64,000 bases of DNA from a virus (IMGVR_UViG_2778261223_000007:1-64000), one strand, 5' to 3'. Shown: positions 33,876 through 50,081, counted from the first letter of the stretch. Numbers and translations: made by a program. Notes: generated from the sequence alone by a model not told the origin.

Positions 33876-34093
33876 GCTGTTTCTAAATCGGAATGTATGA
33901 TCTGCATCATCGACTGAAGTCATCCATTGCTGAAATTTTTAGTTGATCTTCCATGTTTTCAGGCTTATATTCATGCCGTCGTAGCAAATTCTGCGACCAG
34001 GTTTGACAGCCTGAATGTTAGTGCGGACAACCGCAGATTTCCGATATTGCGGTATTTTTGTGTCCGTAAACCGCGTTACGCCCGAATTATGGT

Positions 34094-34168
34094 GGGGCGT
34101 GATGGGGAGGCTTCGGCCTGCTGGTTTCACTAACGCCAGTCTGTCAACCCTGTCACGTCCTGCCACCT
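34094..34168 (+). ncRNA. c4-like antisense regulatory RNA candidate
   Basis: Structured segment with GGTGG...CCACC closing stem; contains CACTAAC (34128-34134) and CTGTCAA (34141-34147), complementary to the repeated GTTAGTG and TTGACAG target elements flanking it; ends are approximate. Confidence 0.45.
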
Positions 34169-34217
34169 GTTTGACAGCGGGTAGCAGGTTGTTAAACCTG
34201 TTAGTGAGGCCGTAACT

Positions 34218-46068: not shown

Positions 46069-46800
46069 TCACAATTCGAATGTGTTGATTGTGAAGGTAA
46101 CTTAACATAGAATTTTCCTTGCTGGTGGGCGGTACCCACGTTTCGCTTGCTGGGCTTGATAGTCACTTATTGGTTATTGTTCGCCCACCAGCATTTAACA
46201 AATTAAAGCGTTAGAAAAGTATAGTAACGCAAGAGCACGCTTTGGCACTGTGCAGGCAAAAGTTCAGCAGGTTTAGTGCGGAAAGTGGTTTCAGAGAGAG
46301 CACTTTGCGGAGTAAACGACAATACATGTTGAGCCACGGAAGGTCTTTTTAAGGTGTTCATTGATGATGGTCCGGCAGAGAGTAACGGTACATGCTGCAT
46401 CTAATCATCAATGCACATCTTCAACATTAAGGAGGCATAGGGATTTTTGTGGCGGTTACCTTTTGCCCTGAGTCTCCTTAATGTTGCAGTAATGCACCTA
46501 TGCGGATGTGGCCTTGCATTGTGTCTTGAAAGAATGGGGTAAGGCCGGGGATATCCCCAGGGGGAGGCACTCCCGCTGCAACGAACAGCCACAGACGGCA
46601 GTCGAGTGATGGGAACGTGAAAAGACTTTAAACCTCGTTATGGCTGGCGTGGCAAACGCGACAACCGAGACAGAGCGGTGACGGGCGGAGAGAGTGCCGC
46701 ATCAAGAAAGAAGCCGACTTGTGATCCCTTTCAGCGGGCATTTGAAAGTGAATCCAACTCAGGCAGTCGGCTTCTTTCTTGTGTGAGATGTAGCGTATTT

Positions 46801-46824
46801 GCCCATCTTCGGGTGGGCTTTTTT
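46801..46824 (+). terminator. intrinsic terminator within the noncoding region
   Basis: GCCCATCTTCGGGTGGGC hairpin followed by TTTTTT; preceded by a 15-bp perfect-stem hairpin (46705-46779). Confidence 0.55.
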
Positions 46825-47284
46825 AGGGTTTTCGTCATGGTTAGCGACTTTGCGGCGGTTTAGAAACCGACCATTAAAGTAAATGCAAACGATGATCTGA
46901 TGATGGTAGCGGCCTAAGAAGCCAGACGCCACGGGGTATGAGTCGTCCCCCGTCAAAAAATCGACCGCAGAGTGTCCCCGTCTGTGTATTAGGGAACGGG
47001 GAGGCATAACAGGCAAGGGCGCTGGTGTGATTAACCAGATGAATGAGAAGGGTCAGGTCTTTCTGGTCAGCGCCCTTACCTGTTACGTCCCTCCCGCGTA
47101 ACAGCCATTGCTTAATGGCATCCTGGGGGAATTTCTTGTAACGGGTATATCCCGTCATGCTGAAGGCGCTAATCACGCTGGAAGCCAGGGTTGTGCATCC
47201 CCTGTTACCGAATTGCAGCCAGGGCGCGGTGCGCCGAAAAGCATACGGAGGTGGAAGCCCTCGCCGGAGACGTACCCGGCAAGT

Positions 47285-47360
47285 GATGGTGTAGCTCAGC
47301 GGTTAGAGCGGTTGACTGTTAATCAACGGGTCGATGGTTCAAATCCATCCACCATCGCCA
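47285..47360 (+). tRNA. tRNA-Asn (anticodon GTT)
   Basis: Cloverleaf read by hand: acceptor GATGGTG/CACCATC, D-stem GCTC/GAGC, anticodon loop CTGTTAA, T-loop TTCAAAT, discriminator G + CCA encoded. Confidence 0.85.
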
Positions 47361-47362
47361 AT

Positions 47363-47438
47363 GCCGGTTTAGCTCAGTTGGTAGAGCGCCTGCCTTGTAA
47401 GCAGGATGTCAGCGGTTCGAGTCCGTTAATCGGCACCA
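47363..47438 (+). tRNA. tRNA-Thr (anticodon TGT)
   Basis: Acceptor GCCGGTT, D-arm GCTCAGTTGGTAGAGC, anticodon loop CTTGTAA, T-loop TTCGAGT, CCA encoded; close to E. coli tRNA-Thr as recalled. Confidence 0.85.
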
Positions 47439-47903
47439 GCACAACAGGTAAGGGTATTTTGCGACGTCGGAGATCGCCGAGCTTGGCAGAGGGTTCGAAT
47501 CCCTACGAAGTACCCTTACCGTTGTGATGAAGTGCAGCTCTTTGAAGCAACCAGAAGATAAGCATCTGGCTTCACAACATAAACCGCAGGAACGACCAAT
47601 AAACGGTAGTCCGTACGGAGAACACCCCGTTGAGGAAGAGGCCTGGCCGGAACCGTAACCGGCACTACAACGTTGAGAACACTGGCGTAACGGGGTCATA
47701 TCCCAATCTACGAATAAATGTTGCGTTGCAGCGTGACAACCAGTGTTCTCAACGTTGTGGTGGATTCGCAGGCTGATGCGATAGCTTTCTTGGATGTTAG
47801 GGAAATGCGGCCGCAAATCTTCCCTTTCGCGAGCGGTGATCGTCCGTAGTCCTAATTGGCTGCACCGTATGCCGGAGATTCAGTACCGGCCACCACAACG
47901 GCC

Positions 47904-47990
47904 GGAGAGTAGGGCGCATGGTGCTCAAGCGGTCTTGAAAACCGTCCCATTGCGCAAGCGATGATGGTTCGATTCCATTACTCTCCGCCA
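47904..47990 (+). tRNA. class II tRNA-like element, anticodon TGA (Ser-like), non-canonical D-arm
   Basis: Acceptor GGAGAGT/ACTCTCC + G + CCA; anticodon stem-loop GCGGT-CTTGAAA-ACCGT like tRNA-Ser(UGA); T-loop TTCGATT; long variable arm; D-arm does not fold cleanly, so possibly a pseudo-tRNA. Confidence 0.4.
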
Positions 47991-48257
47991 GCGCAACGTT
48001 AAGAGTATTTGGCTAATTAAGCGAATGCCGGAAGCAGAACCGGATCACCAAATGCGTACAGGCGTCATCGCCGCCCAGCCAGCCAAGTGCTCTTACCATT
48101 GCGGTGAATGCGGCTAAGCGCACGCGGAACAGTTAAAACAATCCTCCTTAGTGGTTAAGTCAAAAATCCCGGCGTTAATTGTTAACTGGTTAACGTCACC
48201 TGGAGGCACCAGGCACCGCAACCTAATAAATACGTCATGTTTATTGAGGGATAACCA

Positions 48258-48692
48258 ATGTTCGGTAAATTTTTCGGTAAGAAAGTCGCTTCAGCAAAAG
48301 TAGAGCTGAAAAGGGTTGAGAATCGCGATCTGATGGAGGCCATTATCGGTGGCTGTTTGTTGGTGTCTGCCGCAGATGGTGAAATCGAAAAGGAAGAAAC
48401 AGCGAAACTTGATCAGCTTGTCCGCTCTAATCCTCGCTTAAGTCATTTTGGCAACGAAATTACCGCAACAATCACCCGTTTTACTGAGCAACTGGAAGCT
48501 GGTTTCCGTGTTGGTCGCATGAATATCCTTCGCGAAATTGAAGATATCAAAAATGATCCAAAAGAAGCGGAAGAAGTATTCGTTAACATGCTGACGATTG
48601 CAGAAGCGGACGGTGAAATCGAGCCAGCAGAACACAAAGTACTGGAAGAAGTAGGCCGTCGTTTGGGCCTTCGTGTGGAAGATTATCTGTAA
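48258..48692 (+). CDS. TerB-like protein (tciA-like)
   Basis: 144 aa with two ..AADGEIE..E.. / ..EADGEIE..E.. TerB-type repeats; sits between tRNA genes as the tci genes do in P1 (recalled). Confidence 0.55.
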   Translation: MFGKFFGKKVASAKVELKRVENRDLMEAIIGGCLLVSAADGEIEKEETAKLDQLVRSNPRLSHFGNEITATITRFTEQLEAGFRVGRMNILREIEDIKNDPKEAEEVFVNMLTIAEADGEIEPAEHKVLEEVGRRLGLRVEDYL

Positions 48693-48856
48693 TGATTGGC
48701 AAGGCGCGTATTGCGTGCGCCATTGGTTTTCTCGTTTTGTCCGTGCTGGTGGATTTCACCAGCAAAGTGATGTCGGTGTTGGCTGATGGGGCACTGGTTT
48801 CAGTAGCTGTGGTATTGCTATTGCCGATTATTAAAGCTGCGTTCAGGAACTCATGA
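48692..48856 (+). CDS. small membrane protein (tciB-like position)
   Basis: 54-aa hydrophobic ORF (MIGKARIACAIGFLVLSVLVDF..) starting at a TAATG overlap with the TerB-like gene; not in the supplied track (below size cutoff). Confidence 0.4.
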   Translation: MIGKARIACAIGFLVLSVLVDFTSKVMSVLADGALVSVAVVLLLPIIKAAFRNS

Positions 48857-48966
48857 TGGATTTTTGGACGTATATTGATAAGAACCCTGGATGGTCTTTG
48901 CTATTTCTGCTTGTGATCGTATACGGAGTAGAACAAGTAGCGAAGAATCTCAGGCGTCGAAAATAA
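48853..48966 (+). CDS. small membrane protein (tciC-like position)
   Basis: 37-aa ORF MMDFWTYIDKNPGWSLLFLLVIVYGVEQVAKNLRRRK, overlapping the previous stop; hand-translated. Confidence 0.35.
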   Translation: MMDFWTYIDKNPGWSLLFLLVIVYGVEQVAKNLRRRK

Positions 48967-48975
48967 AAACTAATT

Positions 48976-49051
48976 GGCCCCTTAGCTCAGTGGTTAGAGC
49001 TGGCGACTCATAATCGCACGGTCACCGGTTCAAGTCCGGTAGGGGCCACCA
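48976..49051 (+). tRNA. tRNA-Ile2 (anticodon CAT, ileX-like)
   Basis: GGCCCCTTAGCTCAGTGGTTAGAGC...CTCATAA...GGTTCAAGTCC...AGGGGCCACCA; near-identical in outline to E. coli ileX as recalled; CAT anticodon could also read Met. Confidence 0.8.
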
Positions 49052-49505
49052 TATTTGGTTGTAACACGGCGTCTGGCACATGCGTCGTTAGCGGTCTGGT
49101 GACGTTAAAGGGGTTACCTTTTCCCCTAGCTCAGGCAACAAACCAGGTAGCCGGAATGTGCAAGCCCCGTTCATATCGTCGGACCGAGGATTCACCATCC
49201 TGGCGATTCGGTGTGACAGCCGGAAGAGCACGGCGCACAACAGGAAAAGGCGTTTAATTAGCGTGAGCGCCGTTTCCGTTGTGGTAATTGCGGCTATGCG
49301 CTCGTGACGAAGCCATTTTCATTCACTACGTTCTGATAAGTGACGTCGCCAGGAGTGGCTAACCTGGCAGGTGGAGGCACCACCGCCACAACTCCTTTCA
49401 ATTCATCATATAGCCGCTCAGGCTGTACCCCTTAATTAATACGAAGTTACGACATCACTACCGGCACTTCCGGGGGATAGTCGCGCGTGTAAAAAAGGAG
49501 ACGTT

Positions 49506-50081
49506 ATGTTAATGGCGAACGATAACGCATATGCAGAAGAAGATCTCATTTTGAGTGACTTCATAGGGAAGCGTGAACGCTGGACCCAAAAGCGAGAGGA
49601 ACTTTACGCCTCATTAGTTCGCAAAGGCGTCAATATCGAAACCGCACAGAGCGGCGATATGACAGTGGTAAGCGTTGGATTGCACGGTGTAAGCGTGTCA
49701 GCAATCAATCATGAGCCATACGTTGCGTTATCCGAGTCAATGGTAAGGTTAGTTAAGTTCCTGAAGTACACAGAAGCGAATAATGTAATCATTGGCAAAA
49801 AGAATATCCCTTTTTCCTCGGCTTTTTACTGGATGATGAAAGGGCTTGATGCCCGGCGGACATCATGGCCTAAAGGGAGCTATATATCGATGTTCCGTGG
49901 CAGCATTGGCAGCAAAGAAAAGCTCTTCGAATTCTTGCCGGAAGAGGCATTCGATATTGTGGAAGGGTGCGATGTGATGGTGATGCCTCGCCTGGTAATG
50001 ATGAATGGTGATTTACAGGCGCAGACAGACTGGTTTGCAACTGGTGTGGATATTATCGCGACTGACTGGGAGGCTTTCTGA
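49506..50081 (+). CDS. hypothetical protein with C-terminal DUF2829-like region
   Basis: 191 aa; ..PFSSAFYWMMKGLDARRTSWPKGSYISMF.. resembles the DUF2829 signature; weaker than ORF 57728. Confidence 0.35.
   Translation: MLMANDNAYAEEDLILSDFIGKRERWTQKREELYASLVRKGVNIETAQSGDMTVVSVGLHGVSVSAINHEPYVALSESMVRLVKFLKYTEANNVIIGKKNIPFSSAFYWMMKGLDARRTSWPKGSYISMFRGSIGSKEKLFEFLPEEAFDIVEGCDVMVMPRLVMMNGDLQAQTDWFATGVDIIATDWEAF

Follow-up and report, generated by a model that had tools for sequence, protein, structure and literature searches.

In the transfer RNA (tRNA) cluster of phage T4, tRNA genes and the stable non-tRNA RNAs known as species 1 and 2 are carried on one precursor, and under the tRNA-punctuation model the enzymes that process tRNAs also set where adjacent RNAs begin and end. 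In the N leader of phage lambda, an RNase III processing hairpin lies between nutL and the N ribosome-binding site. The small RNAs (sRNAs) STnc100 (RF02076 in Rfam) and PasD are likewise carried by phages, either in the leaders of operons or close to phage tRNA genes. The ban-operon leader of P1 and P7 (AF234172, AF503408) has the order trnA-trnT-(plp, upl)-tciA-tciB-tciC-trnI-ban and a C1-controlled operator, Op72. Here we describe a tRNA/tci island of the same kind, at positions 47285-49051 of a 64,000-nucleotide (nt) stretch of viral DNA (IMGVR_UViG_2778261223_000007:1-64000, hereafter the window), whose spacers hold a series of modules that, by analogy, appear closest in kind to the STnc100/PasD sRNAs, the stable RNAs of the T4 cluster and the RNase III site of the lambda N leader. 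The likeness to the T4 cluster, in which tRNAs are interleaved with other stable structured RNAs, is one of layout only, and unlike that cluster, modules of the type described here also occur without tRNAs, in lambdoid N leaders.

Positions 46800-49600 of the window are 100% identical to Escherichia phage D6 (MF356679 / NC_050154, reverse strand of the record), a P1-family plasmid-prophage. The homology of D6 to P1 and P7 begins at 46798; P7 aligns over 46798-49237 at 90% identity, and P1 over 46798-47778 at 95%, resuming from 48723. In the records of both, tRNA-Asn, tRNA-Thr, tciA/terB, tciB, tciC and tRNA-Ile follow in this order, which is also that of D6, 3' of the C1-controlled ban operator. 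The comparison with the trnA-trnT-tciABC-trnI arrangement of P1 that was made in an earlier, sequence-only reading of this stretch was correct, and the features described in that reading are all present at or near the positions it gave them. Its tally of three canonical tRNAs and two non-canonical tRNA-like elements held for the canonical three, but the whole amounts to four tRNAs and one non-tRNA hairpin. Unlike P1, D6 lacks the operator/promoter block, the homology beginning after it, and its island is followed by an open reading frame (ORF) with a Tad2-like domain, lpa and pacA, whereas that of P1 is followed by ban. Among the RNA elements defined below, P1 shares hairpin A, motif B and hairpin D with D6; P7 also has domain E and the tRNA-Ser, both of which P1 lacks. 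GenBank already contains the tRNA/tci arrangement and the unusual tRNA-Ser; for the structured modules, the databases that we searched give no annotation. We read the island as an accessory tRNA/tci operon in which one long transcript would carry four tRNAs, the tci proteins and conserved, modular structured RNAs, and we put the probability of this reading at roughly 0.55. All coordinates below are window positions, and all features lie on the plus strand unless stated otherwise.

The best-supported new motif is motif B (47521-47578), a 58-nt three-way junction. Its helix P1 has 9 base pairs (bp; GUUGUGAUG/CUUCACAAC) and is followed by junction J1/2, which reads AAGUGCA in D6 and is GAAUUGCAG-like across the family; helix P2 is GCU-CUUUGA-AGC in D6 (3-4 bp in the family, with a loop of the form C...GA), J2/3 is CAA, and the 5-bp helix P3, CCAGA-AGAUAAGCA-UCUGG with the loop GAAGAUAAGCA, abuts the 3' strand of helix P1. 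A 16-mer from this motif matched at least 119 viral contigs. In a MAFFT alignment of 27 distinct sequences, 91% of the cells in the proposed helices were paired (28-50% in slid controls), nine pairs were changed on both sides, and the covariation score was reached by none of 500 shuffles. A further alignment comprised 28 distinct sequences, collected with a looser pattern that did not force the P3 stem and then with a covariance model to which the alignment was fitted (the model scores motif B at 82.7 bits and finds a single copy in the window). Here 93% of cells were paired (25-52% in slid controls), the covariation score was 0.535 versus 0.177 in shuffles, and 10 of the 17 pairs were changed on both sides, amounting to 83 cells versus 20.7 in shuffles; neither figure was reached in any of 500 shuffles. 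The MAFFT alignment agrees with the model-fitted one for helices P1 and P2. Helix P3 occurs as CCAG/CUGG, GCCG/CGGC, CCGG/CCGG and UCGAG/CUCGA around an invariant loop, and many G.U pairs form on the plus strand. Helices P1, P2 and P3 are thus all supported by compensatory changes, and on the plus strand.

Motif B is widely distributed. In lambdoid phages its place is always the same, after nutL and before the N ribosome-binding site, with boxA/boxB of the lambda, P22 or phage 21 type just upstream, and an outer helix lengthens it there to about 18 bp; its carriers include phage 21 and lambda imm21, DE3, HK629, mEpX1, P22-like phages and Stx2a phages. In phage 21, lambda imm21, the P22-like and the Stx2a phages it sits exactly where lambda has its RNase III hairpin, lambda's own N leader being without it; a three-way junction with an invariant loop is not something that an RNase III site needs. 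The motif is also found in Sashavirus and in Klebsiella plasmid phages. Among 5426 complete E. coli genomes, 598 carry it, almost always in P1-like plasmids and almost always without an annotated feature. A motif that stands in the N leaders of classical lambdoid phages and in some 600 E. coli P1-like plasmids thus came without annotation, Rfam family or any paper that we could find. In lambda imm21 (OM418625), an unannotated copy lies at positions 697-763 of the record, after a nutL of the phage 21 type, and since the DE3 phage carries motif B, BL21(DE3) has the motif in its DE3 prophage. A looser pattern scan of genomes was swamped by chance matches: only one of the 100 loci tested, out of 120 returned, was real, and it came from the enterobacterial genus Phytobacter.

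Known RNAs did not account for motif B. Rfam 15, searched at E<=10, returned no family on it and hence no known ribozyme or riboswitch, and no hammerhead core was visible by eye. The M3 RNA of phi80, a classical non-tRNA substrate of RNase P, was likewise rejected, as the phi80 record places M3 elsewhere, as an oop homologue, and the covariance model found no motif B in the right-hand 21 kb of that genome, where the immunity and early region lies. Literature searches on the motif B and hairpin A sequences and on N-leader structures returned nothing relevant.

Hairpin A (47440-47526) begins 2 nt after the CCA of tRNA-Thr and shares a strand with motif B. Its helix of about 21 bp consists of 6 bp between CACAAC (47440-47445) and GTTGTG (47521-47526), a bulged A, and about 15 bp between GGTAAGGGTATTTTG and CGAAGTACCCTTACC; the minimum free energy (MFE) is -41.6 kcal/mol (z = -5.2), and none of 200 shuffles folds as well. 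The acceptor-like stem around a T-loop, without a cloverleaf, that had been noted at 47444-47520 is thus real, but longer than the 8 bp it was given. Inside the helix lie a D-arm-like hairpin, GCGA-CGUCGGAGA-UCGC (47461-47477), a variable mini-hairpin, and a T-arm-like hairpin, AGGG-UUCGAAU-CCCU (47490-47504). Across 11 variants from different phages, 16 positions of the base helix pair, 11 of them with several pair types (for example GGUAAGGGUA/UACCCUUACC, GGUAAGAGCA/UGCUCUUACC and GGGAGUUCCC/GGGAACUUCC). The interiors differ completely between variants, several of them containing T-loop hairpins. The type seen in D6 and P1 is also found in the unrelated Enterobacter podophage BUCT554, where the D-like and T-like hairpins are identical to those of D6 and it is the enclosing helix that differs, with compensatory substitutions. 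Given its conserved T-loop hairpin and its D-like hairpin with a GG loop, we read hairpin A as a conserved tRNA-elbow-like RNA set on a long stem.

It is not a tRNA, and is unlikely to be the remains of one. ARAGORN made no call on hairpin A at its default or 90% thresholds, and Rfam no match at E<=10; the hairpin has no anticodon arm and no free CCA end, and its T-like stem does not adjoin the 3' strand. At the 80% threshold, the only ARAGORN call at this site (47420-47514) borrows part of tRNA-Thr. The relaxed search that had been proposed as a check proved unusable as evidence: at 90% it added nothing, and at 80% it placed four weak calls within the island, where such calls occur elsewhere at 0.42 per kb. 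Decay of a tRNA, one of the origins proposed for this element, is unlikely, because the interior is perfectly conserved while the stem drifts with compensation; the further proposal of a decoy for anticodon nucleases finds no support in an element without an anticodon arm. A role as processing signal, which had also been suggested, is plausible. YrlA/Y RNA (RF02553) was also considered and rejected: the arms run D-like, mini-hairpin, T-like, rather than in the permuted order of T arm, closed acceptor and D arm, and the sole YrlA match (25.6 bits against a cut-off of 69) spans tRNA-Asn and tRNA-Thr, not hairpin A.

The element at 47904-47990, which the sequence-only reading had described, correctly, as a class II tRNA (TGA) with an aberrant D-arm, is called tRNA-Ser (UGA) by ARAGORN at default settings (tga, anticodon at position 33). 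The D6 record notes an 'apparent UGA Serine anticodon but AA not called by tRNAscan-SE', and Rfam at its gathering thresholds makes no tRNA call here, its best family being tRNA-Sec (RF01852) at 43.1 bits against a cut-off of 47. About 30 related viral contigs contain the same 87-nt form, as does P7, where it is unannotated, and the rV5-like phage phita32 has a 91-nt homologue annotated as tRNA-Ser. In its cloverleaf the acceptor stem has 7 bp, the D-stem 4 bp around a 5-nt loop, the anticodon stem 5 bp with a 7-nt loop and U33, the variable arm 5 bp capped by a GCAA loop, and the T stem 5 bp with the T-loop UUCGAUU. Across 11 variants, 99% of the cells in the 26 cloverleaf pairs are paired (35-65% in slid controls), and four pairs are changed on both sides where shuffles would give 0.4, among the changes being one from A-U to G-C in the D-stem and two in acceptor-stem pairs.

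In place of the canonical D-arm (an 8-11-nt loop, with 2 nt between acceptor and D-stem), which is absent, there is a D-stem GAGC/GCUC with the loop AUGGU, 3 nt before it and 2 nt after it, and this arrangement is kept across the family. Compared with the usual class II tRNA, with its 3-bp D-stem and large loop, the family has a D-stem of 4-5 bp and a loop of 3-5 nt; only the D6 copy breaks the stem in the alignment, through a C.U mismatch at pair 12-22 (47915). Since the cloverleaf is kept with compensatory changes across variants, the compact D-arm is a trait of the family and not decay, and the suggestion of a decayed tRNA is not borne out at this position either, the same form recurring with compensation in its acceptor and D-stem. 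The short D-loop and long D-stem also explain why tRNA-Sec is the best Rfam model. An actual tRNA-Sec was rejected, however, as the anticodon is UGA and not UCA, the acceptor/T stack has 12 bp (7+5 or 8+4) rather than 13, and the score falls below the cut-off. With bacterial tRNA-Ser the D6 copy shares the 7-bp acceptor, the 5-bp T stem, U33, the long variable arm and G73. Seryl-tRNA synthetase uses the long variable arm, G73 and the pairs G1-C72, G2-C71 and A3-U70, all of which are present. From this conservation of the fold we predict that 47904-47990 is a genuine member of the tRNA-Ser family.

The modules between the tRNAs follow a common layout; this repeated, modular build of the spacer, like its relatives in lambdoid N leaders, had escaped the sequence-only reading. 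Four units, each consisting of a hairpin and then a domain (A-B, D-E, A3-F and A2-F2), span 47440-48220 and 49236-49392. In each, a long hairpin with a CACAAC-type 5' and a GUUGUG-type 3' base strand is directly followed by the domain; the GUUGUG strand of the hairpin is also the 5' half of the helix that closes the domain, the 3' half being a second CACAAC-type strand that comes after a terminal hairpin. Within the 64-kb window, these sequence motifs occur inside the island only.

Hairpin D (47663-47762) is an inverted repeat with arms at 47663-47685 and 47740-47762, separated by 54 nt. The 24-bp inverted repeat that had been placed at 47663-47763 is therefore present, but its arms measure 23 nt, are 96% complementary and end at 47762. 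Most arm substitutions in P1-like contigs yield G.U pairs on the plus strand, a pattern that would fit an element acting as RNA and not as DNA. Its 3' arm ends in GUUGUGGUG, which is also the 5' strand of the helix closing domain E (47753-47900), a domain of about 148 nt closed by a perfect 11-bp helix (CGUUGUGGUGG/CCACCACAACG) and holding the hairpin UCGCA-GGCUGA-UGCGA and the terminal hairpin GCCGGAGAUUCAGUACCGGC (47871-47890). A homologue in the Klebsiella phage BUCT_49532 (Jedunavirus) is 76% identical, shows compensatory changes in three helices, and keeps GCGGCCGC, GGUGAUCGUC, GGCUGCACC and the terminal hairpin. In that phage it stands alone at 1200-1345, 3' of an HNH endonuclease gene, with a terminator about 50 nt later. 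The palindrome GCGGCCGC (47806-47813) is conserved between D6 and BUCT_49532 while the surrounding helix has changed with compensation; it might be a site of loop-loop contact or dimerisation.

Hairpin A3 (47992-48103), seen in the MFE fold, begins 2 nt after the CCA of tRNA-Ser, with the stem GUUAAGAGUAUUUGG / CCAAGUGCUCUUACC. The domain after it, F (48100-48220), is closed by UGCGGUG/CACCGCA, has the terminal hairpin CCUGG-AGGCA-CCAGG and ends 37 nt before the tciA ATG. Hairpin A2 (49236-49283; CACAAC, a bulged A and GGAAAAGGCG, pairing with CGCCGUUUCC and GUUGUG) precedes F2 (49278-49392), a paralogue of F that is closed by GUUGUGG/CCACAAC, shares the 5' junction of F and its AGGCA-loop terminal hairpin (here GGUGG-AGGCA-CCACC), and ends 113 nt before the ATG of the Tad2-like ORF. 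Domain F resembles STnc100: it scores 39.6 bits (E = 5e-6) over model positions 31-147 of 206, i.e., below the 47-bit gathering cut-off and over part of the model, so that membership is not established. The same match appears in a related contig. Domain F has in common with STnc100 its closing helix, the GGUG-AAU sequence at the 5' junction and, beside the 3' strand, the terminal hairpin with an AGGCA loop. By eye, F2, B and E share this layout as well; Rfam reported no match on F2, and STnc100 membership of E, and of the domain G found in relatives, was rejected as neither matches the model, nor does B. More broadly, Rfam 15 at E<=10 returned nothing on 47440-47900 (A to E), nor on the homologues of these modules in six other phages.

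Relatives differ from one another by whole units: P7 has another hairpin-A variant, some P1-like elements have A-G-A'-B, and BUCT554 has A and then a domain of the E/G type. BLAST of 47439-47900 gave a mosaic, separate pieces of 60-150 nt recurring in the intergenic DNA of unrelated phages: hairpin A in BUCT554, motif B in Sashavirus and in P22-like and Klebsiella plasmid phages, module C in Citrobacter phage phiNP and domain E in BUCT_49532. Module C (47579-47662) is 86% identical to intergenic DNA of phiNP and 83% to another contig, and ends in one of a family of small hairpins, GCCGGA-N7-CCGG in its first copy (47263-47279), with further copies at 47646 (47646-47662) and, inside hairpin A3, at 48027 (48027-48043); all four matches to GCCGGA-N5-11-CCGG in the window fall inside 47200-49450. 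Taken together, the alignments show covariation in A, B, E and the tRNA-Ser, whose structures selection maintains, and the helices of D, A3, A2, F and F2 are predicted from folding and complementarity.

As to what the modules do, RNA processing or folding punctuation is our leading guess. The hairpins that directly follow tRNA 3' ends, each about 20 bp long, could serve as entry sites for an endonuclease, for which RNase III, given the helix length, is the obvious candidate. Cutting them would mature the tRNAs and release the upstream CACAAC strand, freeing the shared GUUGUG strand, which could then close the downstream domain. The closed domain would cap the 5' end of the next RNA, be it the tciA mRNA, that of the Tad2-like ORF or, in lambdoid phages, the N mRNA; alternatively, it would be released as a small RNA of the STnc100 or PasD kind. 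A bolder extension, which we regard as doubtful, is that the spacers of P1 and D6 and the lambdoid N leaders share an undescribed modular RNA family working as a processing-triggered switch that punctuates and tunes early transcripts: cleavage by RNase III or by a tRNA-processing enzyme would refold the downstream RNA into a three-way-junction or STnc100-like domain, whose invariant loop would bind a host factor or a target RNA. The cleavage-triggered refolding step is in itself questionable. If the hairpin-then-domain model were true, it would link the cutting and refolding of polycistronic RNA, tRNA maturation, sRNA biogenesis and the control of downstream genes (N, and the Tad2-like candidate).

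Several points weigh against reading the island as a single tRNA/tci operon with processing modules. No promoter for the island was identified in D6, and a strong terminator (46801-46825) stands just upstream. The codons read by tRNA-Asn are not rare, and codon supply explains this tRNA poorly. The invariant loop and junction nucleotides of motif B suggest a specific ligand or partner, which a plain processing site would not need, and for E, F2, A3 and A2 there are few or no independent homologues. The RNase III and strand-swap steps are pure inference. In MFE folds, moreover, A3-F and A2-F2 form the hairpin and the closing helix together, so that competition exists in only two of the four units and a switch would not be obligatory.

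Other explanations would account for parts of these observations. The modules could be precursors of trans-acting, Hfq-type sRNAs like STnc100 or PasD, acting through loops such as that of motif B helix P3, a reading that is compatible with the operon and that we consider possible, though short of probable. The partial match of F to a prophage sRNA family favours it, as do the invariance of the P3 loop while its stem covaries and the terminator that closely follows domain E in BUCT_49532, as for a stand-alone RNA gene. However, B, E and F have no terminators of their own in D6, whereas the related Pas sRNAs have been described with a 3' terminator; the STnc100 score lies below the Rfam cut-off, E and G go unmatched, and the function of STnc100 is itself still unknown (PMC12370729). 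A counter-defence role for the phage tRNAs, and perhaps for the tRNA-like hairpin, as spares or decoys against anticodon nucleases or colicins is attractive for tRNA-Asn and for the Tyr and Arg tRNAs of relatives. It would explain a tRNA for common codons, and in relatives Tyr and Arg(UCU) tRNAs have been exchanged into this site. The tRNAs for Tyr, His, Asn and Asp are the targets of colicin E5, and those for Arg the targets of colicin D. The adjoining ORF has a Tad2-like anti-Thoeris domain, and the tci genes owe their name to colicin resistance, on grounds of homology alone. Against this, hairpin A, lacking an anticodon arm, cannot be an anticodon-nuclease decoy, and the Thr, Ser and Ile2 tRNAs are well matched to codon supply; we hold the idea to be unlikely overall. 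In a CRISPR interference screen of P1, trnT, plp, upl, tciABC, trnI and ban were all scored non-essential (PMC10695390), and this dispensability for plaques on a laboratory host fits either view.

As a further alternative, CACAAC and GTTGTG could act at the DNA level, as recombination linkers that shuffle modules, the mosaicism arising without any RNA switch. The motif does stand at every module border, and relatives differ by the insertion, loss or swap of whole modules; yet it covaries within helices, and in lambdoid leaders the closing strands are GAUGCG/CGCAUC or GAUGGCG/CGCCAUC. Because these strands differ and still pair, it appears to be pairing, not sequence, that is conserved. We find the linker idea rather improbable, although it can hold alongside an RNA role. 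That the extra elements are decayed tRNA genes or neutral debris of array duplication and deletion, the GCCGGA...CCGGC-AC hairpins being collapsed tRNA-Thr acceptor stems, seems very unlikely. T-arm-like hairpins do recur in hairpin-A variants (AGGG-TTCGAAT-CCCT, GTAGAG-TTCGACT-CTCTAC, CTGG-TTCGATT-CCAG), the small hairpins recur at spacings of 383 and 381 nt, weak ARAGORN calls at 80% are about 3.5-fold denser inside the island than outside, and in one relative about 70 nt stand in for the anticodon arm of a tRNA-Thr. Debris, however, would not show compensatory base changes, and is largely refuted by the covariation; nor would it keep a perfect interior beside a drifting stem, or recur as discrete intergenic modules in unrelated podo-, sipho- and myoviruses. 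A tRNA origin of some pieces is compatible with a present-day function. Least credible of all, to our minds, is that 47409-47816 is conserved on account of a minus-strand protein gene, the putative lipoprotein gene plp of P1, whose record annotates plp and upl as minus-strand ORFs between tRNA-Thr and tciA. The frame is open for 135 codons in D6, and for 125-145 codons across D6, P1 and P7. In relatives that keep A and B (contigs L064, L080, L051 and L010, and Sasha) it is broken, the longest stretch being 58-90 codons. The ORF has no Pfam family and overlaps tRNA-Thr, most of the E. coli RefSeq matches listed have no annotated gene, the homologous pieces in other phages are intergenic modules of 57-150 nt rather than ORFs, and the substitutions preserve RNA pairing on the plus strand. 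After twenty years as hypothetical minus-strand genes, plp and upl of P1 thus appear instead to be conserved structured RNAs on the other strand.

The three canonical tRNAs of the island, tRNA-Asn, tRNA-Thr and an ileX-like tRNA(CAT), were borne out by both programs. ARAGORN at default settings called tRNA-Asn (GUU; gtt) at 47285-47360, tRNA-Thr (UGU; tgt) at 47363-47438 and tRNA-Ile2 (CAU, ileX type; cat) at 48976-49051, and the Rfam tRNA model gave 74.5, 72.9 and 66.2 bits, respectively. Over 76 nt, the last of these shows 90.8% identity to chromosomal genes that carry the annotation tRNA-Ile, with a match in all 5426 complete E. coli genomes, and on this ground we assign it to the ileX type of tRNA-Ile2; its P1 orthologue, at the same position, is annotated trnI and is 89% identical to ileX. 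The pairs C4-G69 and C5-G68, which have a role in the tRNA-Ile2 type, are present. It combines a CAU anticodon with the body of an Ile2, not of a Met, tRNA, and is predicted to be of the lysidine type. In the D6 ORFs of the window, ACA, UCA and AUA, the A-ending codons that the Thr, Ser and Ile2 tRNAs read, are 2.4-, 1.8- and 2.3-fold more frequent than in E. coli, and because they are about twice as common, these tRNAs fit a role in codon supply.

The tRNAs that head the island vary among P1-like elements (contigs L010, L036, L062, L080 and others), with Asn or Arg(UCU), with or without Tyr, and then Thr. As the downstream modules persist while this set changes, the head tRNAs appear to behave as exchangeable cassettes. 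In contig L051 (IMGVR_UViG_2600255169_000001), 5' of its motif B, a tRNA-Thr-like gene keeps the acceptor, D and T arms but has an insert of about 70 nt (GCCGGTTTAGCTCAGTTGGTAGAGCGC[...]GGTCAACGGTTTGAGTCCGTTAACCGGCACCA) in place of the anticodon arm, and receives no ARAGORN call. At 49098-49181 in the window, a weak 80% ARAGORN call, 'tRNA-Ala(agc)', contains CCCCTAGCTCAGG, which is near the 5' part of tRNA-Ile2 (CCCTTAGCTCAG); it may be a tRNA remnant, and is of the class of calls with the background given above for 80%.

The protein-coding part of the island agrees with the TerB-like gene and two tiny ORFs that had been described. TciA (48258-48692) is a 144-residue protein with a TerB domain (Pfam E = 2e-14, 54.4 bits, cut-off 24.4) and is listed in RefSeq; tciB (48692-48856) encodes a small DUF3927 membrane protein of 54 residues (E = 1.6e-18, 66.8 bits, cut-off 25); and the 37-residue tciC-like ORF (48853-48966), to which Pfam assigns no family, lies at the position of P1 tciC and P7 upf69.6. 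Downstream, the ORF at 49506-50081 (191 residues; orf6 of D6, 'hypothetical') has a C-terminal Tad2-like domain (PF11195, E = 1.1e-9, 39.1 bits, cut-off 25). Tad2 is Thoeris anti-defence 2, and with such a neighbour the tRNA/tci island may sit in an anti-defence neighbourhood.

The D6 annotation needs correction. The RefSeq/GenBank record (NC_050154 3486-4191) lists tRNA-Asn, tRNA-Thr and tRNA-Ser in this island (window 47285-47990) on the strand opposite to that of the ARAGORN and Rfam calls, and omits tRNA-Ile2(CAT) and the tciC-like ORF (48853-49051).

Upstream, the terminator noted above is a strong intrinsic-terminator-like hairpin (GCCCATCTTCGGGTGGGC and then TTTTTT) at the edge of the block common to P1 and P7. 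A sigma-70-like promoter, TTGATT-17-TAGAAT, lies at 46085-46113 and is followed by about 700 nt without an annotated gene, and then by this terminator; the segment 46085-46825 could be a candidate transcript for an unannotated RNA or small protein. It occupies the site of the ban operator and of the 'dicF-like region' in P1, and no P1-type C1 operator was found in D6 at up to 3 mismatches. In the immI region of D6 (33965-34170), Rfam recognised the P1-type C4 antisense RNA at 68.8 bits and its a1/b1 target element at 54.4 bits, both above their cut-offs.

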